Shown here: piece after piece, positions 4,039-25,824 of the stretch
Position numbering within the stretch: the first letter of the stretch is position 1
How the letters are laid out: each line of letters begins with the position of its first letter
NCBI GenBank assembly: GCA_965247955.1
Contig: OZ252042.1
Coordinates: 1,968,323-2,032,322, forward strand
Length of the DNA stretch: 64,000 nucleotides
Source: Vicinamibacterales bacterium
Lineage (GTDB): Bacteria; Acidobacteriota; Vicinamibacteria; Vicinamibacterales; UBA8438
Direction: 5' to 3'
Notes under the pieces: model-generated
Databases searched by the model: none
Told to the model about the DNA's origin: nothing
What the model saw: the letters and a program-made list of their open reading frames with translations, nothing else
Made by a program: the position numbers and the translations under genes

Positions 4039-4054
4039 ACCACTACCAAGGAAT

Positions 4055-4156
4055 CGGCCCCTAATGTAGCGGTTTGACCGAAATACTCCCGTTTGGAATG
4101 TAGCGGTTTGACCGTTGAAAACTCCCACAAATCACATGATTCTGTGGAAATCATCC
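4055..4156. repeat. ori-like region A, proximal part: two iterons plus conserved box
   Basis: AATGTAGCGGTTTGACCG at 4063-4080 and 4097-4114, 34 bp apart. An adjacent ~45-bp box (4115-4156; minus strand GATTTCCACAGAATCATGTGA..GTTTTC) is homologous to boxes at 10243 and 23378. Lies 240-330 bp downstream of the repA stop. Confidence 0.6.
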
Positions 4157-4392
4157 GACCCGTCCTCTGGCCTCTCGGGCGCGAGGACGGGCTAGGAGAG
4201 GCGACCGCGGCCGGGGCACCCCTCTCACAGCCCGTCCCTGGCGCGGTCGACGCGCCTGGAGCCGCTCAGGCGCCGGCTACGGGCCGATGAGGAAGTCGAG
4301 CGCCTTGAGCAGCACGACGAAGGCCGAGCCCGTCACACAGAGCGTGATCGTCAACCTGGTTTCGAGCCTGGCGAGCGTATCGAGCATGACGA

Positions 4393-5367
4393 CTATTCCA
4401 CGAGGCGCAGCTGCGAGGGCGGGATACGAGAGGGTGAGGGAGAGAGCAGCAACGCGCCCTTTGGCGTCGAGTAGTGAAGGTCTGGCCAGGCGCTTTTAAT
4501 TTTCGTCAGCTCCCGAAGGCACTTCGTACGAAAGTCGTTCACGATGTTCGTATCGCTTACGTGGGCCGGGTTCGATCCGAACTGACGGTACAGTCGCGGC
4601 CACGTGAGGCGCAGCGGGCGCTTCAACGTGAACGTCCGGTAGGCGAGCCACATGTAGAGATCGAGGCCCAACGAGGATCGCTTCATAGTCTTCAGGATGT
4701 GCAGGTCGAGCGGCACGGGATGGCGAATGACTTCCTCGAAAAACTTCTCACCAAGTTCGATCTTGCTCTCCCACAGCGTGCGGTCGTCGGGACGCCGCGG
4801 ATGCCACCAAAACTCTGTCCGATCGGCGACCAGCGAATTGACGCTCACTTCGCCGTGCTCGTGTTCATAGACCAACTGGACATAAGCATTAAACAGCCGC
4901 CGCATCTGCTCTTGGAGCCGACTACGCACCGCGCCGCCGCTGTTGTAGACACCCACACTCCGCATGAACGCCGAGAGCGAATCGCCGAGGATGAGCTCGC
5001 GGCTTTGCGTCCGCACCGCTTCGGTGCAGACCCACGCCAGGAGCAGGCGCGGGAAGTTACCGTAGGGCAATTTGTTGTCAACCCCAGCGGTCATGGCTAG
5101 AGTGAGCGGCCCATTGCGCCGGACGTGCTGCAGGCGGTCGCCGGGGTCGGTGCGCGGCAACGAACAGAGCGCGAGCATCCGCGCCATGAAGCCCAGGTCG
5201 GCGTCCACTTCACTGACCGCGACGAGCTGCGTTACCTGGTCGAGTTGGGTGAAGTGGCGGCGAGCCTGGGGCGCGCGTTCTCGGCGCGTGGGCACCAGGA
5301 CGCCGGGCAGGTCGACACCGGCGACCAACTCGCCGAGGGGCACGAACCCGTCTCGTTTACGCGCCAC
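4393..5367 (-). CDS. repA: plasmid replication initiator RepA (RepA_C type), apparently intact
   Basis: 324 aa. Motifs LALCSLPRT, RNGP.TL and LPYGNFPRLLLAWVCTEAVRTQ are shared with three paralogues in the window. Only full-length copy. Confidence 0.8.
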   Translation of the reverse strand: MARKRDGFVPLGELVAGVDLPGVLVPTRRERAPQARRHFTQLDQVTQLVAVSEVDADLGFMARMLALCSLPRTDPGDRLQHVRRNGPLTLAMTAGVDNKLPYGNFPRLLLAWVCTEAVRTQSRELILGDSLSAFMRSVGVYNSGGAVRSRLQEQMRRLFNAYVQLVYEHEHGEVSVNSLVADRTEFWWHPRRPDDRTLWESKIELGEKFFEEVIRHPVPLDLHILKTMKRSSLGLDLYMWLAYRTFTLKRPLRLTWPRLYRQFGSNPAHVSDTNIVNDFRTKCLRELTKIKSAWPDLHYSTPKGALLLSPSPSRIPPSQLRLVE

Positions 5368-5665
5368 GGCTTTGTGTCCTGCCCGCGCCCTCGCGACCGC
5401 TCAGCCAGTCTTCCAAGAGCGCCTGGAGCAAGTCTGACACATCCCGATCGGTCGATTCGTCGAGCAAGGCTCGCATCACGTTCCGGTGCGTGTCTTTCCG
5501 CACGAGCGCGCTGATCTGTTTGTAGTCGGGGTTACTCCGCTTGCCGCGGCGCGGCCGACCAAGGCTGCGCACGGCCCCCCGTTGGTCGTCACGGTCTCCC
5601 TCCGCGACGGCGGTCGCGCCAGTCCTGGCGTCCATCAATCCCGCAAAACGATTGTGCTTACCCAT
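5357..5665 (-). CDS. ParG-like ribbon-helix-helix partition protein
   Basis: 102 aa from ATG 5665, overlapping the parA stop. Basic N-terminal tail, then an RHH-like segment (YKQISALVRKDTHRNVMRALLDES). Position is typical of type Ib par loci. Confidence 0.5.
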   Translation of the reverse strand: MGKHNRFAGLMDARTGATAVAEGDRDDQRGAVRSLGRPRRGKRSNPDYKQISALVRKDTHRNVMRALLDESTDRDVSDLLQALLEDWLSGREGAGRTQSRGA

Positions 5666-6260
5666 GTGCCAGAATCTCCGTTCCCAAAACCTCGTAGGCA
5701 CGCCATGCCCGCCGTGCCCGCCGATCCGTGACGGCATGTACCAAGACACCTTCACTCGCAGCCTTGTCGAAGGCTTTGAGGCGAGGAATTTCAGCCGTAA
5801 AGAGAGGGATCCCCTGCGCCACCAATGCCGCGCGGAGGTCTTGCCCGTCGGTTTCCGGTGGTGGCGGGACTTTCGTGAGCAGCACCCAGTAGTTCTTGGC
5901 CGCCAGGCCATGGAGGGTCTGCAGCGTCCGTTGCAAGGCGCGGGTGTCAAGGGCGGCCGGTACCGTGGGGATGATCAGCACATCACAGCCCTGGGCTAAC
6001 TGGGCCAGGTCCGCAGGGTCCGGCTGCGCGTCTGTATCAATGACGACATGGTCGAACTGCCGCGCTGTGTGGGTGCCTTCCGCGACATCGACAATCGCGA
6101 ACGGGAGCGATCCTCCGGCCGCGCCCCATTCGGTCGCGCTACGGTTGGGGTCTCCATCGATCAGCACGGTCGCCGCGCGCGTCTGGAAATACGCGGCGAG
6201 ATGCACGGCGGTCGTGGTCTTCCCGACGCCGCCCTTGTCCGCGGCGACCGTGATGTACAC
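5658..6260 (-). CDS. parA: ParA partition ATPase (small, type Ib)
   Basis: Deviant Walker A motif KGGVGKTT at the N-terminus. 200 aa. Confidence 0.85.
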   Translation of the reverse strand: MYITVAADKGGVGKTTTAVHLAAYFQTRAATVLIDGDPNRSATEWGAAGGSLPFAIVDVAEGTHTARQFDHVVIDTDAQPDPADLAQLAQGCDVLIIPTVPAALDTRALQRTLQTLHGLAAKNYWVLLTKVPPPPETDGQDLRAALVAQGIPLFTAEIPRLKAFDKAASEGVLVHAVTDRRARRAWRAYEVLGTEILAHG

Positions 6261-6442
6261 GGGGTCCAGCTTACCATTTTATGTACTCACATATCTATAA
6301 TTACGATTTATTTAAAATTATGAATACGTATGTATGCAATTTTTAGTGGCTAGGGGCCAACTACTGGGGATGATCGGCCCGAAGTATTAAATATATACTT
6401 ATTGTATATACTACTGAATCGCCTTTGGGCAGCCAGTGTGTG

Positions 6443-6742
6443 ATGCCGTCGCCGTTTGAGTGGGATGAGGAAAAAGCCCGGGCAAACCGCGCTAAACACG
6501 GCATCGGTTTTGAGGAAGCCACAGGCATCTTCACCAGCCCAATACTCACCGCGCCGGATACCCGTCAGGACTATGGCGAAGAGCGTTGGATCAGCTATGG
6601 ATCACTGGGGCCGCGGGTGGTCCTCGTCGTGGTACACACCCGCCGCCGCGGGCGCATCCGGCTGATTTATGCCCGCAAGGCCAACGTCAAGGAAAGGCAG
6701 GCGTACTATGAGTCTCTTGAGAGATCGGCTCCGAACCATTGA
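6443..6742 (+). CDS. brnT: BrnT (DUF497) toxin
   Basis: FEWDEEKARANRAKHGIGFEEA signature. Start taken at ATG 6443. Confidence 0.75.
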   Translation: MPSPFEWDEEKARANRAKHGIGFEEATGIFTSPILTAPDTRQDYGEERWISYGSLGPRVVLVVVHTRRRGRIRLIYARKANVKERQAYYESLERSAPNH

Positions 6743-7529: not shown

Positions 7530-8146
7530 AGTTGCAGGTGTGCAGTTATGAAGTCGTGCAACTGTTCTATCTCAGTGGCAGCCTTGCCGTTGGGCTCAAT
7601 CTCTTGGGCGGCTTGGCCGGTGATGAGCGCTCGGGCCAGCGCCACGCGCTGGCCGAGACGTACAGGACAGACCTCAATAGCTAGATCGGTCAAGGTTGCC
7701 GCGGCATGATCGGCGTCGTGTCCAGCTGGCGCGACGGCATTCAGCACCACAAAGGTCGGCGTGCCAGTGGTGCGGACCAATCGCAGGGTGGATTGGATCG
7801 CCTCAAGGTCCATGATCGCGGTCCGACAAGGGATAAGCACGAGATCGGCGGCGTCAGCGACCTTCAGTGTGGCGTCGTTGTCATGAGGCGCCGTGTCCAG
7901 GTAGAGCATGTCACCCTCGGTTTGTCGCACACGGGCAATCTCCGGGGTGAGTCGGCTGGCGTGAGCCGAGAGGACGACAGGGAGCGCGGCCTCGCGGCGG
8001 TCCCTCCAACTCGCGGCGCTGGCTTGCGGGTCCAAGTCGATGATGGCGGTGTTCCGTCCCGCGCGGGTGGACGACACGGCCAGGTGCAAGGCGACGGTCG
8101 TCTTTCCGGCGCCCCCTTTCTGACTAATGATGGCAATGGTGTTCAT
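7511..8146 (-). CDS. parA: ParA partition ATPase
   Basis: MNTIAIISQKGGAGKTT Walker A motif. Start moved to ATG 8146 (ORF-track start is 8233). Confidence 0.85.
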   Translation of the reverse strand: MNTIAIISQKGGAGKTTVALHLAVSSTRAGRNTAIIDLDPQASAASWRDRREAALPVVLSAHASRLTPEIARVRQTEGDMLYLDTAPHDNDATLKVADAADLVLIPCRTAIMDLEAIQSTLRLVRTTGTPTFVVLNAVAPAGHDADHAAATLTDLAIEVCPVRLGQRVALARALITGQAAQEIEPNGKAATEIEQLHDFITAHLQLCKVTA

Positions 8147-8273
8147 CAGCGCAAGAAAGAATACCTGCACGGCTGCATGCCTGCAATAGTGAAGGTATTC
8201 CATCCTGCACGGAGGATATGTGCAGGTGTGCAAGATTGCATGTGTGCATGACTGTACCTGGGTGACCGCCGGG

Positions 8274-8561
8274 TCACGACGCCTCGCGCTGGGCGCTGGC
8301 GGCGTGCCAGAGGTCGTACTGGGCCTGGAGGTTCATCCAGATCTCGGCGTCGGTTTTCAAGAGCTTCGCTAGCCGCAGCGCGGTATCAGCGGTCATGCCG
8401 CGCTTCCCCTGGATGAGTTCGTTCAACCGGTTCCTCGATATTCCCATCTGCGCGGCTGCGTCGACCTGGGTGAGTTCGCCCGGTTGCAGGAAGTCCTTCA
8501 GCAGAATCTCCCCGGGGTGGGTCGGTGCCCGATGCTTGGGTCGCATGGTCTTCTCCCTCAC
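8274..8561 (-). CDS. higA: HigA antitoxin (HTH)
   Basis: PGEILLKDFLQP..LTQVDAAAQMGISRNRLNELIQGKRGMTADTALRLAKLL matches the canonical HigA layout. Confidence 0.8.
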   Translation of the reverse strand: MREKTMRPKHRAPTHPGEILLKDFLQPGELTQVDAAAQMGISRNRLNELIQGKRGMTADTALRLAKLLKTDAEIWMNLQAQYDLWHAASAQREAS

Positions 8562-8567
8562 TCTCTC

Positions 8568-8873
8568 CTAGTGGTAGTCCTCACAGTGAACCTCGTTGGC
8601 GTGGCCCGCGTCGAAGCGGAAGGTGATCCGATACTGCCGGTTCACGCGGATGCTGTAGCGGCCCCGCTGGTTGCCCTTGAGGGCTTCCAGGCGATGGACC
8701 ACCAACTGGTCGAGTCGAGACGCGGCGTGGAGATAGTCCAGTCGCCGACGGATGACCGGCCAGAGGTTCCGAGGGAGCCGCCGAGCCGCGGTCGTATTCA
8801 TGCCCTCGAATACGTCCTCGGTCGCGGCATCCCGAAACGACCGAATCACGAATACAGTGTACCACGGTATCAA
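8568..8873 (-). CDS. higB: HigB toxin
   Basis: IRSFRDAATEDVF ... RYSIRVNRQYRITFRF ... V.CEDYH. The true start may be the GTG at about 8846. Confidence 0.8.
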   Translation of the reverse strand: MIPWYTVFVIRSFRDAATEDVFEGMNTTAARRLPRNLWPVIRRRLDYLHAASRLDQLVVHRLEALKGNQRGRYSIRVNRQYRITFRFDAGHANEVHCEDYH

Positions 8874-9037
8874 GGTATGTTATAGGTAGGACAGAGAGGG
8901 TAGGACTACCCAAATCCCGCCCAATCACCCGTGACCAGGCCCGGCGTATGATGACTGGGATCTACGCAATATTTAACTGCACGGTCGCTGCCTCGGGATC
9001 GATCATGCTGACAAAGCAGTAGGGGCGGGCTGGTTCG

Positions 9038-9970
9038 ATGAGCACAGACGAACAGCAGAAACGTGGCGGGTTCATTCCGGTCGGCCAGATGGCGGCGCGG
9101 CTGCCGGGCATCGACGGGCGGACCCGGTCAATGTCGGCAAACACCCGGAACCATTTCACTGTCCTGAAACAGATCGATCAACTCATTGAAGCGTCGGACG
9201 CGGAGCCGGATCTTGGCTTCCTGGCGCGTCTGATGGCGCTATGTAGCCTGCCGCGGACGAATCCGCGCCAGCGGACGCAGTACGTCCGGCGCAACGGGCC
9301 GTACACGCTCTACCTGACGGCGGGCGGCGGAAACAAACTGCCGTACGGGAACATCCCGCGCCTGCTCCTGGCATGGGCCTGTACGGAGGCGGTGCGAACG
9401 CAGCGCCGCGAGCTGGTCCTCGGTCGGTCGTTGTACGAGTTCATGCGCCGCCTCGGCATGGAGGATAGAAGCGGGGGCGTCAACGGGCAGCGGACACGGC
9501 TCCGTAATCAGATGACGCGGCTCTTTCGTTGCACGGTACAGCTCGTGCGGAGCGACGGCGATCACGAAGTCACGGTGTCGTCGCTGATCGCGGACAAGTC
9601 GGAATACTGGTGGCACGCGGCAGAAGGTCCTGATCGGCCGGGGCTGTTCGATTCCACGATCCGCCTCGGGGAAGAATTTTTCAACGAGGTCATCGCGCAC
9701 CCGATCCCGATCGACATGAACACCCTGCGCGCGCCGCTCTGCCTCTCCTGGCGTCAAGTCCTGCGCCAGTTCGGGGCCGATCCGGCGAAAGAGAGCTGTA
9801 AAGAGTCGGCGAAAGACTTCCGCCGGCAATGTCTGCGCGAAATGAAAAAAATTAAACGCGCATGGCCGGACCTGGAATACCGGACGGTCCGGGGTGGACT
9901 CGTCATCGAGCCCTGTCCGCCTCGCATCCCGCCCTCTACTCAGCTCCGTCTCATCGGGGACGGGGAGTAG
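9038..9970 (+). CDS. repA: RepA paralogue with an internal in-frame deletion
   Basis: 310 aa with the same motifs as 4393-5367. It lacks about 23 residues (MKRSSLGLDLYMWLAYRTFTLKR equivalent) between IDMNTLRA and PLCLSW, near nt 9730. Confidence 0.7.
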   Translation: MSTDEQQKRGGFIPVGQMAARLPGIDGRTRSMSANTRNHFTVLKQIDQLIEASDAEPDLGFLARLMALCSLPRTNPRQRTQYVRRNGPYTLYLTAGGGNKLPYGNIPRLLLAWACTEAVRTQRRELVLGRSLYEFMRRLGMEDRSGGVNGQRTRLRNQMTRLFRCTVQLVRSDGDHEVTVSSLIADKSEYWWHAAEGPDRPGLFDSTIRLGEEFFNEVIAHPIPIDMNTLRAPLCLSWRQVLRQFGADPAKESCKESAKDFRRQCLREMKKIKRAWPDLEYRTVRGGLVIEPCPPRIPPSTQLRLIGDGE

Positions 9971-10242
9971 GTCAAGGCAGCTCGTCGACCGCCGCGTCGA
10001 GCGCGCCGGCCGGAATCACCGGCCGGCCATAACTGCCAGCCCAAGCCGCCACGGAAAGCGCCGCTCACCCGAAGGGGCGCCGCGAAGCGGAGCACGGCGC
10101 AGCCGTTGACGGGCGCTGTGAATGGAGGCTCGTCCGGGTCTGAAACACGGCGCTGGCGCGCCGTTCGGCCGTGGGGTGGGTATGTTTGGCCGTCCGGCGC
10201 GCGGTCACCGCTCCTGTGGCCGCGTAGCGGCTCGGATGGGGA

Positions 10243-10350
10243 TTTTCCACAGATCACCTGTGAATCGAGGGGTTTTCCGTCGGTTAAACATCTCCCCCTT
10301 ACGAGGCCGATCTATCGGTTAAACATCTCCCCCTTACGAGGCCGATCTAT
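10243..10350. repeat. ori-like region B: conserved box plus a perfect 35-bp tandem duplication
   Basis: Box TTTTCCACAGATCACCTGTGAATCGAGGGGTTTTCC (10243-10278). Then CGGTTAAACATCTCCCCCTTACGAGGCCGATCTAT twice (10281-10315 and 10316-10350). The repeat core CGGTYAAAC is shared with region A iterons read on the minus strand. Confidence 0.6.
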
Positions 10351-10375
10351 CCATCACGGTCCAGAGCGCTCCGAT

Positions 10376-10560
10376 TCACCGGGCGAGAACCTTCTCGCCT
10401 TGCTCGCGCAACTGGCCCTGCGGCCCGACGTGCCTGTAGAGCGCGTCACGGGGTTGATCCGAGTTCGACGACAGAGATCGGACACGGAAGTGTCGCGGTG
10501 CGCCATCGCGGCCTGGGCCAGCCGCACCTGGGCTTTCGATAGCGCGAACTTCCTGCCGCC
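10376..10560 (-). pseudogene. remnant of a serine resolvase C-terminal HTH, frameshifted
   Basis: Two frames together read GRKFALSKAQVRLAQAAMAHRDTSVSDLCR and ALYRHVGPQGQLREQGEKVL. No catalytic domain is present. Confidence 0.5.
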
Positions 10561-10686
10561 GTGGCGTCCGTGCGCCCGCAACGCCGACGCGCATGAATTC
10601 CTGACAGCACGCCATCAAACCTAGCCATGGCCCGGGGTCCCGCAGCCGCCACTGACCTGCCCTCGGGGCAGGATCAGCGTGCCACG

Positions 10687-11094
10687 TCAATCTCGCCGTT
10701 GGCTAAAGACATAGTCCTGAGCCTCTTGGGGCTGGTGGCAGGAAAAGCAGGCGGTTTCGGCATTCGCACCCACCACCCGAGTGCCGGCGTCACCACCTCC
10801 GAATCCCTCGAAGCCCCAGCCACCCGTCGCCGGATAACGCTCCGAGTCCTTGTGCATCACGCCCAGCACCTTGCGTGCGCCCTCGGTGACCGCGTTGTCC
10901 GCGCGCACCGCCTCCAAGAGGTCGAAGGCAATCACAGCGCCGTCTGGGAAGCGTCCGGCTTGATAGCCGGTGACGGCTTCGTCATTGGCGTAAATGTGGT
11001 GAATGCCGCCGAAGGCCTCGAAGAGGGGATGCCCCTCCTCAATCACCATGCTCTTGATGTGCGACCAGTCACGGTACCCCGTCGGGTAGGGCAC
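10687..11094 (-). CDS. cytochrome P460-family protein
   Basis: CFSCH heme-attachment motif near the C-terminus and overall P460-like sequence. A hydrophobic signal-like segment continues in frame upstream of the first ATG, so the start is uncertain. Confidence 0.7.
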   Translation of the reverse strand: MPYPTGYRDWSHIKSMVIEEGHPLFEAFGGIHHIYANDEAVTGYQAGRFPDGAVIAFDLLEAVRADNAVTEGARKVLGVMHKDSERYPATGGWGFEGFGGGDAGTRVVGANAETACFSCHQPQEAQDYVFSQRRD

Positions 11095-11467
11095 TTCGGA
11101 CTGCCCTTCAACGACAGCGATGGCAGCCGTGACACTGATGGCGGTGAGCAGACGTGCGGCTGGTTTGTAGGTCGCCGCGCAAGGTGGCGATCGCGGTGGT
11201 GAGGTCGCCGCGCACTTTCATTGATACGCTCCTTCCGAGGCTTCGGTTTACCGTCAATCGGCCAACTCGCGTGATCCCCCCTACCCGAACACAACTCACG
11301 CGGGATGTGTTGCAACTTTCGACAAGCGGCAAGAGAGCGCTTGGGACAGCCTGCTCGCGGCGCTCCGTGCCGGTTGAAACCTGCCGCCATTTTCGTGCTC
11401 GTACGTGGCGTGGCTCGACCGCCCTTGACCGACCAAGTTTATCGGATATATACTTCATAGTTAATAA

Positions 11468-11482
11468 TGAGACTCAGTCTCA
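11468..11482. promoter_or_regulatory. palindromic operator candidate (Fur-box-like context)
   Basis: TGAGACT-C-AGTCTCA, a perfect 7-bp inverted repeat embedded in AATAATGAGACTCAGTCTCAATAATA. This is the only AT-rich patch between the divergent P460 and TonB-dependent receptor genes. Confidence 0.3.
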
Positions 11483-11739
11483 ATAATACACGCTCGCTGT
11501 CGCAGTGTGATGCCGTGCACACCTCCCTGCAGAGACGTCGCCTGTCACACACGGTGGAAAGGCTGATGTAGTGATTGAGGCCTGACTGAGGCAAGAAGAC
11601 GCTCGCCGGATGTGGTAGCACCCGGCGAGCTTGAACGAACGCACGGTCCACAGACCTGTCACACGCAACACGCGCGACGACGCTCGTCTTCCGCATTGTA
11701 CCGGCGAGTGGGTGTGGCGCGCAAACCAAGAGGAGCGCC

Positions 11740-14700
11740 ATGACTCACATCGCTCGGCTTCTGCTGTGCTCGACCTTCCTGCTCTCACCCGTCGGATCGA
11801 CGCTCGTGGCGGCGGCTGATGAGCCACTCGGCGTATTGGTCGTGGCCCACGGCTCGACGGCGGCGTGGAACGCCACAGTCGAGGCCGCCGTGACGATCAT
11901 GCAACAACACACGCCATCCCAAGCGGCGTACCTGATGGGGGCAAAGAACCGCACCCCGCAGGAGGCGTACGACGACTTGCTCGCGGCTGGCGTCCAGCGG
12001 GTGGTGATCGTGCCGCTCCTGGTGTCTTCCTATAGCTCCCACTACGAGCAGGTCCGCTTCATTGGGCGCCTGCGCGACGATTACCCGGGCTCCGACTGGA
12101 TGAACCTCACGCCGCTGCACGGGCCGGCTGACGTGGTCGGCGTCACGCCAGCGCTGGATGCCCATCCGATCCTCGCGGACATCCTGTCAGACCGAGCGCG
12201 GGCGCTCAGTCGCGATCCATCCACGGAAAGCCTCGTCATCGTGGCACACGGGCCGAACGGTGACGCGGACGCAGACCGGTGGATGGGCGTGATCCGAGAC
12301 CTTGGCGTCCAGATCCGGTCCCGTGTGCCGTTTCGGGAGATCGACGTCCGCCTCTTGCGGGACGATGCGCCAACACCGGTCAAAGACCAGGCGCTCGCGG
12401 AGTTCAGAGACTCGGTGGCCAGCCGTGCCGCGTCAGGACGCGTCGTTGTCGTGCCGCTCCTGCTCGGGCCGGGCCGCGTCGTCGACCAGATACCCAACGT
12501 ACTCACGGGATTGGAGTACCTCTGGGACGGTCGCCCCGTGCTCCCGGACAGCCGGATCGCTGACTGGGTCATGTCTCAGGTCGAGCGTGTCTCGGCGCAG
12601 CAGGCGGCGACCAGCCAGCAGTCGTCCGAACAGCGGGGGGGCATCCCTCCGGACGCCGCCCTCGTACCCGATACCGCGCAGCCGACTGACGATCCGCTGA
12701 CATTTTTCGAGTCCGTGACCGTCACGGCGACGCTCCGGCCGACACCGGTGCGGGATACCCCAGGCACGGTGACGGTCATCGACAGCGACGTCATACAGCG
12801 GAGGCAGTTCGAGACCTTCGCCGACCTCGTCAAGTACGAACCGGGGGTGTACGTCGAGAACAACGTGACCCGTCTGGGCCTCAACGGCTTCAATATCCGC
12901 GGCATCGGCGGGAATCGTGTCATGACACAGGTGGACGGCGTGCAGACGTCGGAGCAGTTCGACTTCGGCCCGTTCAACGCCCATCAAGTCGGACTCGATC
13001 TCGACGCGTTGCAATCCGTCGAGATCGTGCGGAGCGCGAACTCGGCGCTCTACGGGAGTGATGCCCTCGGCGGCGTCGTGTCGCTGTTCACGAAGGATCC
13101 CACTGACTACCTCCGCGGTCAGCGGTTCCACATCGGCGCCAAGACGACGTGGGATGGTCGCGCGGGCGATATCAGTGGGAACCTCACGCTGGCCGGGGGC
13201 ACCGAGCGGCTCCAAGCGTCGCTCTTTGCCAGCGTCAACCGCGGAAACGAAATCCGCAACAAAGGAACCGTCAAAACCACGGATGCCACCCGGACCGCGG
13301 CGAATCCACAAGACGTCCACAGCCAGCAATTCCTGGGCAAGGTCGTCTTGACAGCCACGCCCGGCAATATATGGCGCGTGGCCGCGGAGGTCTATGACAC
13401 TCGCGTCGACACGGAATGGTTCTCCGACATGGGCGTGACGCGCCTCGGCCCGTTTACCTATCACACGTTGGATTCGAGGGCGGTCGACACGCAGGCCCGC
13501 CTGCGTCTGTCGCTCGATCACACGCTGGTCGACCGGGCCGGCCTCGATCAGTTGTCGTGGCGTGTCTACGGTCAGCGTAACGACACGTCACAGGTCGTCG
13601 ACCGGGAGCGCATGACGTTCGCCTTCGGCCCGCCGACGCACTCGACGCGCCACGAGACGGTCGACTACGCGCAGTCTGGCTACGGCGGCTCGGCCCAGGG
13701 TCAGACGTGGTTGGGCGATCCGGACAACGGCGTGCTGGTCACGTTCGGTGCGAGCCACAAGGCCGACAGATTTGACATCCTGCGCGACCGGAGCGAGGTC
13801 AACCTGCAAACCGGGGCGCCTGTGCCAACGAGCTTGATCTTCCCGACCAAGTACTTCCCCGAGAGCGACGTGGCCGAAGCCGGCTCGTACGTCCAGGCGG
13901 AGATCCGGTTCGGCCGTGTCACGCTCGTGCCCGGGGTGCGGTATGACCACTTCACGCTCGACGCCAACCAGCGTGATCCAGTCTTCATCGCAAGCCTCAA
14001 CCCGGAGCCAGTCGACTTCTCCAACAGCGCCGTCTCGCCGAAGGTGGGCCTGGCGGCGCGGGTGACGGACGTTGTGACCATCCATGCCCAGTACGCGGGC
14101 GGATTTCGGGCGCCGGCCTACAGCGCCATCAACACCGGCTTCACCAATCCGCGCGGCGGCTACACGACGCTGCCGAATGCGCATCTCAGGGCCGAGACCA
14201 GCGACAACATCGAGGTCGGCGTGCGCACCGCGTTCGACCGCGCAAGCATCGGCGTGACCGCCTTCTCGAATCGGTACGATGACTTCATCGAGTCGACCCG
14301 CATCGGACTCAATCCGCGTACCCGGCTGCTTGAATTCCAGAGCCAGAACCTCCAAGAGGCGGAGATCAAGGGCGTTGAGCTGCGCGGTGAAGCGTACCTG
14401 ACCGACAGCGTGATGATTCGCGGGAGCTACGCGCGCATCGACGGCGTCGAGATCTTGAAGGACGCCACCGTCCCGCCACTCGCCGCCGAGACCCCGCTTG
14501 CGTCTATCGCTCCGAATGAAGGCGTGCTCGGCATCCGGTACGCCCACCCCTCCGGCCGCTGGGGCAGCGAGCTGTCGCTCCGGTTGGTCGAGTCGTACCA
14601 GGGTGCCCCTGATGAAGACCAGTTCGCGCCGACCGCCTACCAGGTCGTCGACCTCGTGAGCCACGTCTCGCTCGCGGAGGCGCTCACGTGGCGGTTTGGC

Positions 14701-14832: not shown

Positions 14833-15079
14833 TGGCGGCCAACGAACCAGGTCGGACCGTGAAACGCCTGTCTGACCATCGTCACGAAGGAGAGGCGTGG
14901 GCCAAAGGGTCGGCGCGGGCCGCGTGCGCGCGGCGGCGGCGAGAGAACTGGCGGCTGAAGCTGAAGCGTGAGATCTCGTCAAAAGCCGCGGCCGGGTTCG
15001 AGCATGACCGCAACCGAGACAAGAGCAGTCATGGTGAAACTCTTCGCCGCGCGCGGACGGCTCCGATGATCTCCAGAGG

Positions 15080-15885
15080 GGCATTGTCAAGTTGACGAAA
15101 AGAAGGCGTGACGATCCCGGGACAGCTCGTTCTGCGTCATGGTCTAGCAGGCACACGTCACCTCATTCCAGACGCGAAACGAGCGCGTTCTGAGTGAGCG
15201 ATGGTGAACCGCCCGGAGCAGATGGCGGCCGACACGAAAGAGATTCTGTACGACGCCGTGTACCGATGCGAACCGTTGCAGTTGGGCGGCCGACTTGAAC
15301 CGACGCATCTGGCGCTCCCGGTGGCGGGTCGGCTGATGCGAGACCTCTGCTCGATTGTTTTCGTACTGCCGGGTACTGTGGATCACGGAGGGCATCTCGG
15401 TGCGGTGCGCCGCCGAGTAGCTGCGTAGCTTGTCCGTGATCAGCCGGCGAGGCTCGCGCCCCTGTCCTTTCAATAGCTTGCGGAAGAACCGTGTGGCCGC
15501 TCGCCGATTGCGGCCGGACTGGACGAGGATGTCGATGACATCGCCGTCCTCGTCCACGGCTCGCCAGAGATACTGCTGCTGACCCTGAATCTTCACGAAG
15601 ACTTCGTCGAGATACCAGGTGTCGCCCATGCGGCCCCGGTTGCGGCGCAATCGCCGCGCGTAGTCGAGGCCGAACGTCCGACACCACTGCCGAATCGCCT
15701 CATACGTCACGGTGATCCCCCGTTCGGCGAGGAGATCCTCGACATCCCGGAAACTCAGGGCGAACCGGTAGTAGAGCCAGACGGCGTGACTGATGATTTC
15801 AGGGGGAAAGCGGTACCGGCGGTAGCTGGGCGGCTGGCTCGTCATCCACCTACTCTGCCATCCGCCGCTTCAACTTGACAGCGCC
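15080..15885. mobile_element. IS6-family insertion sequence
   Basis: 806 bp. Terminal inverted repeats GGCATTGTCAAGTTGA (15080-15095) and TCAACTTGACAGCGCC (15870-15885), 14/16 matched. Single transposase ORF. No flanking 8-bp duplication. Confidence 0.85.
15144..15845 (-). CDS. IS6-family transposase
   Basis: 233 aa. YRRYRFPPEIISHAVWLYYRF.LSFRDVEDLLAERGI and DKLRSY motifs are typical of IS26/IS6 transposases. Confidence 0.9.
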   Translation of the reverse strand: MTSQPPSYRRYRFPPEIISHAVWLYYRFALSFRDVEDLLAERGITVTYEAIRQWCRTFGLDYARRLRRNRGRMGDTWYLDEVFVKIQGQQQYLWRAVDEDGDVIDILVQSGRNRRAATRFFRKLLKGQGREPRRLITDKLRSYSAAHRTEMPSVIHSTRQYENNRAEVSHQPTRHRERQMRRFKSAAQLQRFASVHGVVQNLFRVGRHLLRAVHHRSLRTRSFRVWNEVTCAC

Positions 15886-18051: not shown

Positions 18052-18070
18052 GACGGTGCGGAGGAGAGAT

Positions 18071-18478
18071 CTAGCTCGCGGTGCGGAATCGTAGGTCACG
18101 ACGGACGCGGATCATGCGACACTCAGCTCCGGGCGGCTTTGGTAAAGGCGGGAACGCCCTCCGCTTGTCGGCGAGGGGGTCTCCGCCCGAACGGGCTAGC
18201 TTGCGGTTGGCGAGGGCTAGCTCGCGGGCTTCGGCCAAGGAGACGAGCCCGGCGGCGCCAAGTCCCATCTCGCGGCGGCGTCCGCGGATGACGAGCCGCT
18301 GGATCCAGCTTCTCGTGCCGGTGGGCTGCACGAACAGGTACAACCCGTTGCCGTCGGCGTGCCGTCCTGGCGGCGCGGAGCGGACGAAGGCGGCAGTGAG
18401 CGCCTTGTCGGAATGGCGTCCTCGGCGCTTGGTTCGTGGGGGTCTGGCGGCGGAATAGACTACAACATTCATTCCCAC
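18071..18478 (-). pseudogene. tyrosine integrase remnant (DUF4102 arm-binding domain only)
   Basis: GNGLYLFVQPTGTRSWIQRLVIRGRRREMGLG...SLAEARELA. The catalytic domain is absent. Confidence 0.65.
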
Positions 18479-19685: not shown

Positions 19686-19700
19686 TTCATGGCATAAAAC

Positions 19701-20299: not shown

Positions 20300-20532
20300 A
20301 ACTGCCGCGGGGCGTTTCCGCCCGCGAACTCATCCGCGCACTCAAAGCCGATGGATTCGTTCATGTCCGAACGAGAGGAAGCCACCGCAGATTTCATCAC
20401 CCTGATGGTCGCCGCGCTTCTGTGTCCTACCATCAGGAATCCGCACCCCTTCCCATGAACACCCTGCGGAGCGTTATCGTGCTCCAAGCCCGATGGGAAG
20501 AGGACGATCTTCGACGACTGAGACTTCGATGA
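20296..20532 (+). CDS. hicA: HicA toxin
   Basis: SARELIRALKADGFVHVRTRGSHRRFHHPDGR is typical of HicA/YcfA. Confidence 0.75.
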   Translation: MKLPRGVSARELIRALKADGFVHVRTRGSHRRFHHPDGRRASVSYHQESAPLPMNTLRSVIVLQARWEEDDLRRLRLR

Positions 20533-21752
20533 GTAAAGACGACGAGCACTGCGGCGGGTTCGTGCCCCTCGGCGATATGGCCGGGGCGGTCGACCTGTCC
20601 CCCGCCACGCCCCAAGCCCGGCACCACTTCACCCGTCTCGACCAGATCGACCAGCTTGTTGGCGCGAGCGAAGCGGAACCAGATATCGGCTTCATGGCGC
20701 GGCTGCTCGCGCTGTGCAGTCTACCGCGCACCAATCCAGGGGACCGGAAAGAGTACGTCCGGCGCAACGGGCCATACACCCTGATCATGAGTGCCGGCGG
20801 CCACCCGGCGCGACTGCCCTACGGTATCCTTCCGCGGCTGCTGCTGGCATGGGTGTGCTCAGAGGCGGTACGGACGCAGCGCCGCCAACTGGTCCTCGGG
20901 CGGTCGCTGTATGAGTTCATGCGCAAGCTCGGCATGGAGAATCGAAGCGGGGGCATCAACGGCGAGCGGACGTGCCTCAAGAATCAAATGCGCCGGCTCT
21001 TTCGGTGTTCGGTCCAGCTCGTCTACGTCGAGGCGCAGCATGAAGTAATCGTACAGTCCTTCATTGCAGACCGCGCCGAGTTCTGGTGGGACGCGACGCG
21101 AGACTCCGGGCCGTCGTTGTGGGACAGCACGATCGAGCTTGGCGAGAAATTCTTTCACGAAATCATCGCGCACCCTGTACCGATCGATCTGCACATCCTT
21201 AAGGCGATAAAGCGGTCGCCCCTCGGCCTCGACCTGTACCTCTGGCTCACGTACCGGACGTTCAATCTTAAGACGCCGCTGTGCCTGTCCTGGCGGCAGC
21301 TCTACCGGCAATTTGGCGCGGACCCGGCGCGCGTGACGGCCGGACGCGTGTTCGACGCGAGCCGGGTCCGCGTGATTGACGGAGACACGATCGAGGTCGA
21401 GGGCACGACGGCGACGGTTCGGCTGATGGGGATTGACACGCCGGAGACAAAGCATCCGACGCGGCCGGTCGAGTACTACGGCGCGGAGGCGGCGGCACTC
21501 GCGGAGACGGTGCTATCAGGGATGACGGTAGACCTGACGACAGACCGGACCGGGGACCGGGAGGATGTGTACGGTCGGTGGCTGCGGTACGTCGTGGTGC
21601 GGGGCGTTGATTTCAACGCGGCGCTCGTGCGGGGAGGGTACGCGCGAGCGGTCCGGGGATTTGCGTATGCCCGTCGGGCGGAGTTCATCGGGCTTGAAAA
21701 TGAGGCGCGATCGCGCGGCGTGGGTTTGTGGGAGGCACGAGGGCCGGAGTAG
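20529..21752 (+). CDS. chimeric RepA (C-terminally truncated) fused to a staphylococcal-nuclease (SNase) domain
   Basis: RepA motifs run up to RQFGADPARVT (about aa 270-280). Then VIDGDTIEV...VRLMGIDTPETKHP...YGRWLRYV...GLWE, typical of the thermonuclease fold. Start at ATG 20529 overlaps the hicA stop. Confidence 0.7.
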   Translation: MSKDDEHCGGFVPLGDMAGAVDLSPATPQARHHFTRLDQIDQLVGASEAEPDIGFMARLLALCSLPRTNPGDRKEYVRRNGPYTLIMSAGGHPARLPYGILPRLLLAWVCSEAVRTQRRQLVLGRSLYEFMRKLGMENRSGGINGERTCLKNQMRRLFRCSVQLVYVEAQHEVIVQSFIADRAEFWWDATRDSGPSLWDSTIELGEKFFHEIIAHPVPIDLHILKAIKRSPLGLDLYLWLTYRTFNLKTPLCLSWRQLYRQFGADPARVTAGRVFDASRVRVIDGDTIEVEGTTATVRLMGIDTPETKHPTRPVEYYGAEAAALAETVLSGMTVDLTTDRTGDREDVYGRWLRYVVVRGVDFNAALVRGGYARAVRGFAYARRAEFIGLENEARSRGVGLWEARGPE

Positions 21753-21854: not shown

Positions 21855-22418
21855 ATGCGACAACGAAAAGCTATTCTAGCGTTCTCTCACCCTGAGTCAC
21901 AACCGGCGACGTTGCCGGGATTTGAACACCGGGCGGCGGTCCGGCGCGAGCGGAAGGAAGCGGAGGCCCGCGCAATCGAGGACAGCCGCGCGTACCTCGG
22001 GCCGACGCCGATGCGCCCGCGCTCGGCACAGTCGATATTTCATTTCAATCAAGCGGATCAAGTCGTGTCGCTGGTCACGGCGCGGCAGAACGCGCCGGAC
22101 ATTGGTTTCATGGCGCGGCTCCTGGCGCTCTGCTCGTTGCCGCGTACGAATCCCGGCAAGCGGGTGCAATACATGCGGGTCAACGGACCGTACACGCTCG
22201 TGATGAGTTGTACGGGCCGGGCGCGGTTGCCGTACGGGATTCTGCCGCGCTTGGTGTTGGCGTGGGTGTGTTCGGAGGCGGTGCGAACACAGAACCGGGT
22301 GCTCACGCTCGGGGCGTCGCTGTCGGCGTTCATGCGGAAAGTCGGGATAGAGAATTACGGCGGCGGGCCGCGTCCAGTGATCGCGTCATCCTCGCGTGCG
22401 AGGTCTGCCCGCGCATGA
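21855..22418 (+). pseudogene. RepA N-terminal half only
   Basis: DIGFMARLLALCSLPRTNPGKR...LPYGILPRLVLAWVCSEAVRTQNR, then loss of similarity and a stop. Confidence 0.7.
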
Positions 22419-23507: not shown

Positions 23508-24644
23508 TTATTGAGGACGAGCGACGGCCGGAAGCCTGGGGCTCGGCCGTTGTGGGGCGTTCGTGCGACCGGTCGCGTGGTCGCTCGGTCGTGTGACGGG
23601 GTCGGCCTGGGCCGGGGCGGTCCTGGCCGTGGTACGACGCTCGTGCGGCCATTCGCCGGATGGCTCGGCCGTGGCAAAGTGTGCGGCCGGTCGCGTGGTC
23701 GAGGGGTGCGCGTGGCCGGCGAGATATTGCACGTCGTCGAGGGGTACGCCCTGGATGAGCAGGTCGGTCACCACCATGACGCGGAACGAATGCGGCGTGA
23801 TGAGGGGGGGGAGACCGGCATCTTTGAGCCGCCGCTGCAGCATCGCCCGGATGGTCCAGGGACCGATGCCGGCGCGGCTCAAGCCGCTCGGCGCGGTGGC
23901 GGACGCGGCACGGAACAAGGGCGCGTCCTTGGCGTCGCCGTTCACGTCCGCGGCGACCAAGTATGCCGTCAGCCAGCGGTCGAGGTCGAGGCGCACGGGA
24001 ATGTCGCGGTCTTTGCCGCGTTTCTCCCGGAACCGCAGGGTCCGGCTCTCGCCGTAGTCGCACAGGTCTTGGAGCCGCAACTTCGCCAGGGCGCCCACGC
24101 GCGCGCCGGTGTAGGTGAGCGTGCCGATGACGGCGCGGTCGCGCAAGCCGACGGGCCGCGCACAGTCGATCGAGGCCAGGAGCCGTCGCGCCTGCGCGAC
24201 GGTGATTTCCGGCGTCCGGCCGCTGCCGGGGCCGCGGGCCTGTCGCGGGCCGGTGACGGAGAGGAACGGGTTGAGCGCGAGCGCGTGGCGCGTCACCAGC
24301 AGATTGCCGAATTGGCGCATGGCGGCCAGGGCGACCTTTTGGGTGGACGCGGCGCCGCCCACGCCGTCCATGTATTGCCCGGCCAGGAGCGGGGTGACGG
24401 CGCGGAGCTCGATGTGCTGGGCCTCGCACCAGTCGAGGAAGTGGCGGATGGCGCGGCCGTAGGCCCGCCGGGTGTGCGGGTTCCGGTGGCGCGCGCCCAA
24501 AAACTCGCCGGCGGCGAAGCACGCGCCCGCGCCGGCGCGCTCGAGCATGGCCGGGTACCGGCCCTCCAGGGCCGCCGGCGCGGGCGGCAGCGGTACAAGT
24601 GACGAGCCAGGGGTCTCGGACGCTGCCATGCTGTGATAACCCAC
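23508..24644 (-). CDS. tyrosine recombinase, apparently lacking the catalytic Tyr
   Basis: Phage-integrase fold motifs are present (TGARVGAL, HSFRVMVVT, LAGHAHPSTT). After STT the sequence becomes low-complexity (RPAAHFATAEPSGEW...) with no Tyr in the expected position. Confidence 0.65.
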   Translation of the reverse strand: MGYHSMAASETPGSSLVPLPPAPAALEGRYPAMLERAGAGACFAAGEFLGARHRNPHTRRAYGRAIRHFLDWCEAQHIELRAVTPLLAGQYMDGVGGAASTQKVALAAMRQFGNLLVTRHALALNPFLSVTGPRQARGPGSGRTPEITVAQARRLLASIDCARPVGLRDRAVIGTLTYTGARVGALAKLRLQDLCDYGESRTLRFREKRGKDRDIPVRLDLDRWLTAYLVAADVNGDAKDAPLFRAASATAPSGLSRAGIGPWTIRAMLQRRLKDAGLPPLITPHSFRVMVVTDLLIQGVPLDDVQYLAGHAHPSTTRPAAHFATAEPSGEWPHERRTTARTAPAQADPVTRPSDHATGRTNAPQRPSPRLPAVARPQ

Positions 24645-24802
24645 TTTATCACACAGCGTTTAGGGCAACACTCGCGTGAGCTCGTGCGCCTCGGCGCGGG
24701 GCTGAGCGTCCATGTCCTTCAACGCCTTGTCCATCACCCGCCGCAACACGTGTCTGTTCTGCATACCCTCGGCAATCGATTCACGCAAGGTGACGTTGCT
24801 GT

Positions 24803-25134
24803 CTATCCATTCCTCGAACCAACGCCGAATCTCCGTGACGCGGCGGCCTGGATGCCGTTGTACAGCATGAGTCCTGGACTGAGATGACACCCGCCGCCGA
24901 ACGGACACCAATCAACGTGCGCGGAGATTGAGCGAAGTGTCAGTTGCGCGTCGAGCGCGATGCCATCGTTGTCGAACTGACGACTGAGACCGAACACGCT
25001 GAATCCACCGCGGAGGTTCACCTGTTCGCCAATCGGGACGGCGATGTCGGCGCCGCCGGTGCCTGACCGGCCGCGGTACGTGCCGCGGCCGCGACCATGA
25101 GACACACGAGCGAGAGAGTAAAGAACGTTTTCAT
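24803..25134 (-). pseudogene. secreted/outer-membrane-type protein fragment with a frame break
   Basis: Signal peptide MKTFFTLSLVCLMVAAAA starts at 25134 in one frame. The beta-rich continuation (GADIAVPIGEQVNLRGGFSVFGLSRQFDNDGIALDAQL) is in another frame. Confidence 0.3.
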
Positions 25135-25186
25135 CAGGACCTCCAGTGTCGCCATGCATCACCGCCCGGCGACAGGTGTAAGGGGG

Positions 25187-25342
25187 TCACACACCGTCGA
25201 GGTCACGAACGTTCGGATCGGCGCCAGCATGAAGCGACTGGTAAACATCAAGCAGCGATCCTTTTTCGGCCGCGCGATGTAACGGGGTCACACCGTTAGC
25301 ATCGACAGCGGTGAGGTCGTTATCAGCCAGAAGTGGAATTAT
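25187..25342 (-). pseudogene. ankyrin-repeat fragment
   Basis: DANGVTPLHRAAEKGSLLDVYQSLHAGADPNVRD is a single ankyrin-like repeat with no credible N-terminus. Confidence 0.3.
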
Positions 25343-25706
25343 GGATCGTGATGGCGGCGGGGGGTTTCGGCGGCGAGGCGCGTCCCTGGACGAGGCGCGG
25401 GCGCGTGGGGTCTCCCCCTTCCCGGAGGGAGAAATCAGACCAGAGCGACCCCTCGCCGCGTGCTCGCCCTGGTTCATGCTCTGGCCTACCCCTGGCCGGT
25501 CGTTGCGGAGCGCGGCGCGGAGCGTCTTGGCGGTGGTCTTGGGTGGGTTTTCGGCTTGGCGTTACTATCGAGGTAACAGTATTTTCTAAAAACCTAAGGG
25601 AAACGGTTGGTGTGGTGTTGCTCCCACCACTCCTCCCCTTAATTACACGTCGAGTTAAGCCATTTTTTAATTTCTCTGAACCGAACGATTAACAGGCCAC
25701 CGGCCT

Positions 25707-25768
25707 GTACGTACTTGTCGGATTGTACTACTTGATCTGTACTACTTGTACGTGTAGCGGTTTGACCG
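25707..25768. repeat. ori-like region A, distal part: GTAC-rich repeats plus third iteron
   Basis: GTACGTACTTGT, then GTACTACTTG twice (inverse orientation of the 23438-23480 cluster), then TGTAGCGGTTTGACCG (25753-25768), immediately before the AAGGAAT/IS junction. Confidence 0.55.
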
Positions 25769-25824
25769 AAGGAATGGGTAGTGGTCTAGTTTGAAAAGCG
25801 CGGCCCCCTGGACAGATCGTCTCG

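Follow-up and report, generated by a model that had tools for sequence, protein, structure and literature searches.

Two copies of an insertion sequence (IS), in direct orientation and 100% identical, lie at 904-4047 and 25777-28920 of the window, the whole 64,000-nucleotide stretch of DNA analyzed here. Each is 3,144 bp long and carries its own transposase together with passenger genes:

904..4047, + strand: IS copy 1, IS1-family, 3,144 bp, ends fixed via copies L299 and L300
1193-1645, - strand: ORF of 150 aa in IS copy 1, function unassigned
1663-2790, - strand: HigA-type HTH plus M78-like protein of 375 aa in IS copy 1
2800-3093, - strand: HigB-like toxin in IS copy 1
3196-4038, + strand: DDE transposase of IS copy 1
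25777..28920, + strand: IS copy 2, same sequence and orientation as copy 1

The boundaries of the element were set by L299 and L300, two independent, 99.7% identical copies found elsewhere, which differ from each other at 3 positions and are each flanked by perfect 8-bp duplications abutting the inverted repeat. This repeat, GGTAGTGGTCTAGTTTGA, is a perfect 18-bp inverted repeat at 904-921/4030-4047 in copy 1 and at 25777-25794/28903-28920 in copy 2, and is absent from the rest of the window (chance expectation, 0.02 matches). The first-pass annotation, made from the sequence alone, had put the IS at 3.15 kb and proposed comparing 897-4047 with 25770-28920. These spans are indeed 100% identical over 3,151 bp in direct orientation, while the element itself accounts for 3,144 bp; the 7 extra bases, AGGAATG, lie beyond the left inverted repeat and are flank, not IS. 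Because 8-bp duplications abutting the inverted repeat are found in L299, L300, and 72 of 90 relatives of the IS, we take 8 bp as its duplication rule (the length is 7 bp in one of the 90 relatives, and a 7-of-8 match occurs in five). The element has no resolvase.

As for the family of the element, its transposase scores 34.3 bits against Pfam PF03400 (DDE_Tnp_IS1; cut-off 24.1), with only partial coverage of the profile, and 64 bits against NCBIfam NF033558 (IS1), below the cut-off of 100; IS6 models score far lower. GGnnnTG ends are a feature of the IS1 family (PMC6807381). The ends of the element, GGTAGTG...CACTACC, fit this pattern and are conserved in relatives from 80 genome loci. Its 8-bp duplications fall within the 8-9 bp of the IS1 family and have G/C-rich end positions. 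The element resembles the family in its ends and its duplications and, over the part of the profile covered, in a DDE_Tnp_IS1 domain above the Pfam threshold. However, it does not match the classical IS1 layout (insA/insB, programmed -1 frameshift, ~770 bp), having instead a single 280-aa transposase ORF with an N-terminal HTH and, as passengers, three ORFs: the HigB/HigA-like pair and the 150-aa ORF. It fits at most a divergent single-ORF subgroup of the IS1 family, presumably the single-ORF passenger-carrying subgroup of ISMhu11-like elements.

Between the two copies lies the 21.7-kb plasmid segment, whose origin of replication meets the IS at both inner junctions:

4048..4055, + strand: AAGGAATC, the target duplication on the right, same sequence as the lone copy of IS-free relatives
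4065-4080 and 4099-4114, + strand: iterons 2 and 3 of the oriV for RepA1
25753..25768, + strand: iteron 1 of the oriV for RepA1
25769..25776, + strand: left-hand copy of the target duplication, AAGGAATG, with a G by the left inverted repeat where the empty site has C

The iteron TGTAGCGGTTTGACCG, an exact 16-mer, is present in exactly three copies in the window (starts 4065, 4099, and 25753; 0.47 expected), and to the left of iteron 1 are TGTACTACTTG repeats and an A+T-rich stretch (about 25560-25752). When one IS and one copy of the duplication are removed, the iterons are spaced by 33 and 34 bp in a circle of 21,721 bp, and the IS is located between the first and second iterons of the oriV serving repA1. 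The same spacings and circle size had been proposed from the sequence alone, with iteron positions 1 bp off. Likewise, the AAGGAAT reported at 4048-4054 and 25769-25775, followed by a G at 25776, is present. What had been described as a 7-bp duplication is at both inner junctions, but under the rule seen in L299, L300, and 72 of 90 relatives its length is 8 bp, the AAGGAATC/AAGGAATG pair matching at 7/8 positions. The IS inserted between iterons 1 and 2 of the repA1 oriV and duplicated the 8-bp target AAGGAATC. The RepA1 origin, split one iteron from two, is probably disabled.

The empty site is preserved in four IS-free contigs with a 97.5% identical RepA, two of them circular (L304 and L306; 40.5 and 24.95 kb) and two linear (L305 and L307). 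All four carry an uninterrupted ...TACG TGTAGCGGTTTGACCG AAGGAATC GGCCCCGAA TGTAGCGGTTTGACCG ... TGTAGCGGTTTGACCG TTGAAAACTC, the iterons being spaced by 33 and 34 bp, and have the target once, as ...GACCG AAGGAATC GGCCCC.... When the window is compared to L306 by BLAST, 25688-25775 and 4048-6362 align to neighboring stretches of the plasmid that overlap by 7 bp. These relatives bear out two earlier proposals, namely that the IS sits inside an iteron array next to repA and that the inner segment is once-circular plasmid DNA. A free plasmid with this IS in its origin was not found in any collection searched.

The plasmid segment carries the following further features:

4393..5367, - strand: repA1, RepA_C family (PF04796, E = 4e-26), origin split by the IS
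5658-6260, - strand: parA after repA1
9038..9970, + strand: repA2, RepA_C family
10280-10349: perfect 35-bp x2 direct repeat, ~310 bp downstream of repA2
15080..15885, - strand: IS6-family element (transposase 15144-15845; inverted repeats GGCATTGTCAAGTTGA and GGCGCTGTCAAGTTGA)
20493-21752, + strand: repA3 fused to a staphylococcal-nuclease domain
21855-22418, + strand: repA fragment
23508..24644, - strand: tyrosine recombinase (Xer/phage-integrase type)

The segment had been treated as a replicon; it is a plasmid, but a mosaic one, with four RepA_C genes (one a fragment), three ParA genes, and the IS6-family element at a module junction. The 35-bp repeat near repA2 is likely a second origin, still intact, and the RepA2 module as a whole looks intact, while repA3 and the repA fragment belong to further replicon modules. 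The IS6-family element, whose flanks TCCAGAGG and TGCACCAG show no duplication, lies 2 bp from the limit of a near-identical stretch common to the window and the circular plasmid L301 (14.7 kb; 98.9-99.96% identity to window 7975-15077). The origin of L301 is collinear and has three different iterons with spacings of 33 and 35 bp. With few exceptions, the RepA family occurs on contigs of plasmid size. What lies between the IS copies is a once-circular, 21.7-kb multi-replicon plasmid of the RepA_C/iteron type. As in iteron-controlled RepA_C (PF04796) replicons, there are three direct 16-bp iterons about three helical turns apart, the array lies ~280 bp downstream of repA with an A+T-rich stretch and an adjoining parA, and the relatives are on circular plasmid-sized contigs. 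In contrast to these replicons, the array here is split by an IS, and three more RepA_C genes or fragments are present on the plasmid.

Outside the two IS copies, the window has prophage DNA on either side:

1..759, + strand: outer left flank, Gp49-like toxin and HTH antitoxin module of the prophage
760..903, + strand: unplaced DNA (144 bp) separating IS copy 1 from the prophage module
28921..29679, + strand: outer right flank, native prophage DNA from the exact IS end
29011-29232, + strand: hicA
29234-29449, + strand: hicB

Positions 1-759 are 97-98% identical to IS-free relatives (L302, L303, L310, and L311). The right flank, which runs from GAAAACCC TAG (the last 11 nt of a 76-aa gene) through hicA and hicB to another 76-aa gene, is 94-96% identical to L308-L312. 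An empty site is found in L310 and L311, in which Gp49-HTH is followed by a 97-bp stretch and then by GAAAACCC-hicAB with no IS, homology to the window picking up exactly at 28920/28921. These alignments show that both outer flanks belong to one Gp49/HTH-hicAB locus of a prophage, with 97 bp of prophage sequence replaced by 144 unrelated bp in the window. The outer flanks GAGGAATG and GAAAACCC show no duplication (3/8 positions match, and there is no repeat at any offset). The first-pass annotation had correctly called these flanks different, but although it recorded ..GGAGGAAT on the left it passed over the AGGAATG common to both left flanks, where 897-903 and 25770-25776 are 7 identical bp. 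We gauged the chance of such matches on 2,485 unrelated duplication pairs: runs of at least 7 bases, counted from the IS-proximal end, are seen in about 0.04-0.08% of them, and a 6-of-8 match, such as that of GAGGAATG to AAGGAATC, in about 1.3%. If GAGGAATG is an independent target, its match to AAGGAATC would be an unlikely, though not negligible, coincidence.

The cointegrate architecture proposed from the first reading is firm. The path behind it is not, and the replicative transposition then invoked as its origin is not established, since other paths give the same pattern: structure alone cannot separate recombination between a plasmid and a prophage copy from the other routes, transposition out of a plasmid-borne copy also yields this architecture, and an inner-only duplication does not tell which replicon was the donor. 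We incline, with some reserve, to the reading that the 21.7-kb plasmid is integrated in the prophage locus of the 2.49-Mb contig and that the IS was in its origin before the fusion. We favor this order over replicative transposition from prophage to plasmid because the duplication has one mismatch when the IS copies have none over 3,144 bp, because the outer flanks have no duplication, and because the left flanks have in common 7 bp of a kind rare among unrelated pairs. The mismatch is weak evidence of age, since 7-of-8 matches are seen in 5/90 relatives. A later mutation or an error in the consensus could also explain the G at 25776.

If the IS was in the plasmid first, it most likely entered the origin by ordinary transposition, and the IS-bearing plasmid would then have fused with the prophage through the IS by one of two routes. 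It could have recombined with a resident prophage copy, or there could have been duplicative transposition out of the plasmid copy with a non-canonical left junction, in which 7 bp of plasmid flank were carried, no duplication was made, and prophage DNA was replaced. Once integrated, the plasmid would be replicated passively, and recombination between the 3.1-kb direct repeats could release a circle of ~24.87 kb (the plasmid plus one IS) and re-integrate it.

The opposite order, in which the prophage already had the IS and Shapiro-type replicative transposition took it into the circular plasmid, creating the second copy and the duplication in one step and leaving a lasting cointegrate, strikes us as rather unlikely. 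It would account for direct, identical copies with a duplication at the plasmid junctions only, for a target present once in the empty site of four relatives, and, the element having no resolvase, for the persistence of the cointegrate; moreover, cointegrates can form in the IS1 family, and IS1 itself produces both these and simple insertions. The G at 25776 is also the base found at 903 by the left inverted repeat of copy 1, and could be a donor-flank nucleotide carried along with a 7-bp stagger, a duplication length seen in 1/90 relatives. However, the duplication would then be as young as the copying of the IS, yet it is mismatched while 2 x 3,144 bp of IS show no difference. The copy that would have been the donor is not flanked by a duplication (GAGGAATG on one side, GAAAACCC on the other), its left flank differs from the DNA in IS-free prophages, and the 6-7 bp common to donor flank and target would be a coincidence (~1.3% for 6-of-8, under 0.1% for a 7-bp run). 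An IS-free relative reading ...TTGTCTTGGAGGAATG followed by native DNA unrelated to the plasmid, together with a single-IS prophage flanked by GAGGAATG/GAAAACCC, would favor the prophage as donor. Movement of the whole IS-plasmid-IS unit into the prophage via its outer IS ends, as a composite transposon, is very improbable: two direct copies do surround the segment and the right outer junction is exact in native prophage DNA, but such a move needs an 8-bp outer duplication, where GAGGAATG and GAAAACCC match at 3/8, and leaves the inner plasmid duplication unexplained unless the IS was in the plasmid already.

The joins across the 3.1-kb repeat rest on the assembled sequence. A free ~24.9-kb plasmid with one IS and a prophage with another could have been threaded together through this repeat, outer-IS-plasmid-IS-outer being a valid walk through a repeat node in a metagenome-derived 2.49-Mb contig. 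Related plasmids do assemble as separate circles in sister samples, and exact identity of the copies is what a collapsed repeat gives. We nevertheless regard such a chimera as improbable, since the sister assemblies, by the look of their contig names and sizes, may well come from long reads, which normally span 3.1 kb. It would in any case leave the biology unchanged (an IS in the origin of a circular plasmid, and the same IS in a prophage), and recombination is expected to turn each form, integrated or free, into the other.

Within the plasmid-first reading, a more specific and more doubtful proposal is that the IS on the plasmid brought about the fusion by a duplicative transposition that was non-canonical and in effect one-ended, and that left the shared flank as a scar. 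The right IS end would have been joined precisely to prophage DNA at ^GAAAACCC, and copying would have run through the IS, once round the plasmid, and through the IS again, to stop 7 bp past the left end. The end would there have been joined to the prophage, the AGGAAT microhomology in the ribosome-binding-site-like GGAGGAAT being a possible point of joining, with prophage DNA deleted and no duplication made. One-ended (asymmetric) replicative transposition has been described for Tn3-family elements, and the present case is similar in that one junction is exact, the other lies a few base pairs past the second passage of the element, and the insert exceeds one unit length of the donor plasmid. 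In contrast, a target duplication usually remains in the one-ended products of the Tn3 family, and there is none here. To our knowledge, neither one-ended nor flank-carrying transposition is on record for IS1-family elements, and we put the mechanism forward as a lead that would explain the anomalies and not as a demonstrated mechanism.

The case is clear but ordinary, a mobile element fusing two replicons, and mechanisms of this class have been in the textbooks since the studies of Hfr strains and IS1. The nearest parallels are IS-mediated integration of the F plasmid (Hfr formation) and plasmid-chromosome cointegrates formed by IS1 or IS26. As in those systems, a larger replicon has taken up a circular plasmid, a direct IS copy marks each junction, the target duplication is found in the replicon into which the IS inserted, and the fusion is reversible by recombination between the copies. 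Unlike in those systems, the IS here lies within the plasmid's own iteron array, the plasmid went into a site within a prophage, and the outer junctions have no duplication, a 7-bp common flank, and replaced prophage DNA. The host also differs, being an uncultured soil bacterium, probably of the Acidobacteriota/Vicinamibacterales to judge only by the nearest relatives of the IS. The case is a well-documented natural example in which the empty site of each partner could be recovered, and it illustrates the joining of plasmid, phage, and chromosome gene pools in Acidobacteria-like bacteria. If the one-ended reading were true, an IS1-family element would have a route to move a whole plasmid into another replicon, with shared flank bases as the diagnostic scar. 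Exact boundaries and a duplication rule are now given for a large passenger-carrying element of this family.

As proposed in the first-pass annotation, 897-4047 and 25770-28920 lie in direct orientation and are 100% identical over 3,151 bp each. Both copies of the insertion sequence (IS) carry a perfect 18-bp terminal inverted repeat, GGTAGTGGTCTAGTTTGA, which has four matches in the window against a chance expectation of 0.02. We place the element proper, with an 8-bp target duplication, at 904-4047 and 25777-28920 because in its relatives, and in 3,144-bp copies from another sample, 8-bp repeats abut these ends.

Copies of the IS and their 8-bp flanks
904-4047, copy 1 (inverted repeats 904-921 and 4030-4047)
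25777-28920, copy 2 (inverted repeats 25777-25794 and 28903-28920)
896-903, flank a, outer, left of copy 1: GAGGAATG
4048-4055, flank b, inner, right of copy 1: AAGGAATC
25769-25776, flank c, inner, left of copy 2: AAGGAATG
28921-28928, flank d, outer, right of copy 2: GAAAACCC

The element has four open reading frames (ORFs). The first encodes a 280-aa transposase with an N-terminal HTH that scores 34.3 bits against Pfam DDE_Tnp_IS1 (cut-off 24.1) and 64 bits against the NCBIfam IS1 model, under its cut-off of 100. The passengers, spanning 1193-3093 and 26066-27966, are a HigB-like toxin, a 375-aa protein joining a HigA-type HTH to an M78-peptidase-like part, and a 150-aa ORF without a family match. 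The ends agree in sequence with GGnnnTG, an IS1-family feature (PMC6807381).

Scanning GTDB genomes and IMG/VR yielded hundreds of relatives, the nearest (85% amino-acid identity) in Vicinamibacterales metagenome-assembled genomes (MAGs). Three such MAG loci, L001-L003, share the entire 3.1-kb element including passengers at 77-80% nucleotide identity, which in L001 reaches 87% over the first ~600 bp. Sample ERZ26167216 holds two 3,144-bp copies, 99.65-99.68% identical to those in the window, with perfect 8-bp flanking repeats (AACAATCT and CGGCCCGA). All 90 inverted-repeat pairs at the relatives' loci have the ends GGTAGTG...CACTACC; a perfect 8-bp direct repeat abuts the ends in 72, while five match at 7/8 positions, one has a 7-bp repeat and 12 have none. 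The AGGAATG that precedes both window copies was considered as part of the IS and rejected, since it is absent beside L001-L003 (79% identity) and beside L299 and L300, the two ERZ26167216 copies at 99.7%, where the duplications abut GGTAGTG. Lengths in the family run from 146 bp, which is MITE-like, up to 6.2 kb (median ~3 kb), so that carrying cargo is the rule in this group.

The DNA between the copies (4048-25776) is plasmid DNA. It encodes three ParA proteins, BrnA, HigBA and HicB-like toxin-antitoxin functions, a cytochrome P460, a TonB-dependent receptor, an IS6-family element and tyrosine recombinases, together with four paralogous RepA_C genes (61-83% nucleotide identity), one of them a fragment.

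RepA_C genes and fragments of the inner segment
4393-5367, repA1, whose origin is split by the IS
9038-9970, repA2
20493-21752, repA3, fused to a staphylococcal-nuclease domain
21855-22418, the fourth of the set

The only contig on record with the window's RepA1 is the 2,490,310-bp source of the window. Four other contigs encode a RepA 97.5% identical to it, two of them circular (L304, 40,538 bp; L306, 24,950 bp), and in 4/4 the origin is IS-free and reads ...GTACTACTTGTACG TGTAGCGGTTTGACCG AAGGAATC GGCCCCGAA TGTAGCGGTTTGACCG AAATCCTCCAGTTTTGAA TGTAGCGGTTTGACCG TTGAAAACTC..., with iterons 33 and 34 bp apart in an array ~300 bp downstream of the repA stop codon. The window has three, and only three, copies of the 16-mer iteron TGTAGCGGTTTGACCG, at 4065, 4099 and 25753 (chance expectation 0.47 matches at up to three mismatches). 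The IS-free origin is the natural empty site: it has a single AAGGAATC exactly where the window has IS-AAGGAATC and AAGGAATG-IS, and BLAST aligns 25688-25775 and 4048-6362 to neighbouring stretches of plasmid DNA that overlap by 7 bp. These data bear out the earlier proposals that the segment was once a circle of 21,721 bp and that the IS lies between iterons 1 and 2, beside repA. The trapped DNA is nonetheless a mosaic and not one simple replicon. In L301, a circular plasmid of 14,742 bp, the origin is collinear, with three different iterons (spacings 33 and 35 bp), and L301 matches 7975-15077 at 98.9-99.96% identity; RepA2 has its own perfect 35-bp repeat, present twice (10280-10349). The IS6-family element (15080-15885) lacks a duplication of its own and is 2 bp away from where near-identity to L301 stops; it is probably the trace of a past fusion or deletion in the making of the mosaic. 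L301 also encodes, at 12355-14190, a 679-aa protein made of 17 tandem 108-nt (36-aa) repeats, and a 670-aa window ORF (16087-18099) matches a cell-surface glycopolymer formation family, under the family cut-off. PLSDB megablast with the inner segment and the IS returned no match, and RepA1 in a JGI metagenome scan found only relatives of at most 41% identity, hence no empty site. Exact-protein look-ups gave no match for the transposase (two start sites), RepA1, HicA, HicB or RepA3; those that succeeded went through an IS passenger gene, the TonB receptor, Gp49 and cluster members.

The DNA outside the copies is a prophage locus.

Features of the outer DNA
left of copy 1, Gp49/HTH toxin-antitoxin pair
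right of copy 2, hicAB, followed by phage genes
31584-33155, terminase
34718-36157, portal
38189-39307, P22-type coat protein
43769-48019, tape-measure protein
right of copy 2, holin

In two IS-free prophage relatives, L310 and L311, Gp49-HTH is followed by a 97-bp 3' remnant of a 76-aa gene, and this by GAAAACCC TAG... and hicA-hicB-76aa. Their identity to the window is 97.4-97.8% across 1-758/759 and 94-96% starting at 28920/28921. L308 has the complete 76-aa gene, ending ...CTGCGAAAACCCTAA. At the right outer junction, therefore, native prophage DNA begins exactly at the IS end. On the opposite side, the 97 bp of the IS-free prophages are replaced by 144 bp (760-903). This stretch weakly resembles the 3' end of the 76-aa gene family and is absent from all relatives' loci compared; two 20-24-mers from it had no match in IMG/VR, where a terminase scan gave nothing above 49% identity, and six-frame translation with a promoter/terminator scan revealed no clear coding or RNA role. 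In prophage L302 a hicB remnant directly follows the equivalent of position 759. In five genomes (window 759/760; L302 10741; L303 10741; L310 4812; L311 4811) one and the same base (...CAAGAGATGA) closes the Gp49/HTH module, and what comes next differs from genome to genome (a hicB remnant, a RelA/SpoT gene, the 97-bp gene remnant, the 144 bp without placement). This looks like a recurrent cassette boundary. Further along, a G+C-rich 71-bp tandem repeat (37925-38090; 2.3 copies, 80% identity) separates a 320-aa ORF without a family match (36978-37940) from the coat gene, and in 60462-63759 a ~600-bp unit carrying LexA-like S24 peptidase genes or parts of them is repeated five times (64-90% identity), a DoxX gene lying among the repeats.

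The first-pass annotation read AAGGAAT right of copy 1, AAGGAAT plus G left of copy 2, and outer flanks ..GGAGGAATG and GAAAACC.., exactly as in the window; its inner duplication is indeed present at both IS/plasmid junctions, but this IS makes 8 bp, not 7. Flanks b and c mismatch at the base next to the left inverted repeat: C in the empty site, G in flank c. Flanks a and d have no common duplication. Flanks a and c agree at all 7 bp beside the IS (AGGAATG; 897-903 on the copy 1 side). Among 2,485 pairs of unrelated family duplications, at least 6/8 positions match in 1.3%, and a run of at least 7 bases from the IS-proximal end occurs in only one or two (0.04-0.08%). A strong target preference for AGGAAT was rejected: across 71 duplications the only bias is towards G/C at the two ends (positions 1 and 8), and the motif was not seen among them. 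Nor do the left flanks behave as diverged homologues, local alignment beyond the 7 bp being no better than shuffled (21% of shuffles score as high) and MAFFT giving no convincing alignment. The 8-mer TTGTACTA occurs in the 64 kb only at 859-866 and 25723-25730, 45 and 54 bp upstream of the left IS ends, a coincidence without explanation.

Three routes (A, B and C) would yield the same architecture. In the one first proposed (A), a prophage copy transposed replicatively into the plasmid. The cointegrate architecture stands, but the three flank details fit a clean event in this direction poorly: b and c mismatch although the IS copies differ at 0/3,144 positions, whereas the independent copies L299 and L300 differ at three; a and d lack a duplication; and the a/c identity must be a chance resemblance on top of a mismatch in a brand-new duplication. 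A carried-over donor nucleotide with a 7-bp stagger could produce the mismatch, yet we regard this route as unlikely. The AGGAATG at 897-903 is most simply read as copied from the plasmid-side flank, which would put the IS in the plasmid first, and on balance we lean towards such an order. The plasmid-borne copy, with its own duplication, would then have recombined with a prophage-borne copy (B) or transposed duplicatively into the prophage (C). Recombination requires that the a/c resemblance be chance and that the G of flank c stem from heteroduplex repair or mutation. We infer that an effectively one-ended event could account for all three anomalies together: after a precise right junction, copying would pass around the plasmid and 7 bp beyond the left end before sealing to prophage DNA, so that target DNA was lost and no duplication made. 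We know of no demonstration of this for IS1-family elements.

An assembly chimera is improbable. Polishing "bleed" was considered as the cause of the a/c identity; it leaves the flank's six further matches to the plasmid target unexplained. On the evidence of the flanks a tandem duplication was rejected, as was a composite transposon, to which we give hardly any credence. Some other explanation takes the remaining probability.

Split one iteron from two, the RepA1 origin is probably disabled; the RepA2 module appears intact, and the integrated plasmid would presumably be carried passively. Through the 3.1-kb direct repeats a 24,873-bp circle could be excised and integrate again. With a ~28-kb insert just upstream of the terminase genes, the prophage is probably too large for packaging. 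The architecture is that of Hfr formation and of IS1 and IS26 cointegrates. New here are the element itself, a 3.1-kb, passenger-carrying, single-ORF IS1-family member, the host lineage, and the recovery of both partners' empty sites from sister metagenomes; the non-canonical outer junction is the sole feature that might merit more work.

Elsewhere in the family, IS relatives stand in tandem, head to tail, at three loci (L055 4255-6858, L025 5304-5347, L023 4445-4482), with right-to-left end gaps of 8 bp in L025 and L055 and 2 bp in L023. They resemble IS-dimer junctions or insertions beside an existing copy, and in L055 one 8-mer, CACGAGCA, flanks both a 146-bp mini-element and a full IS copy.
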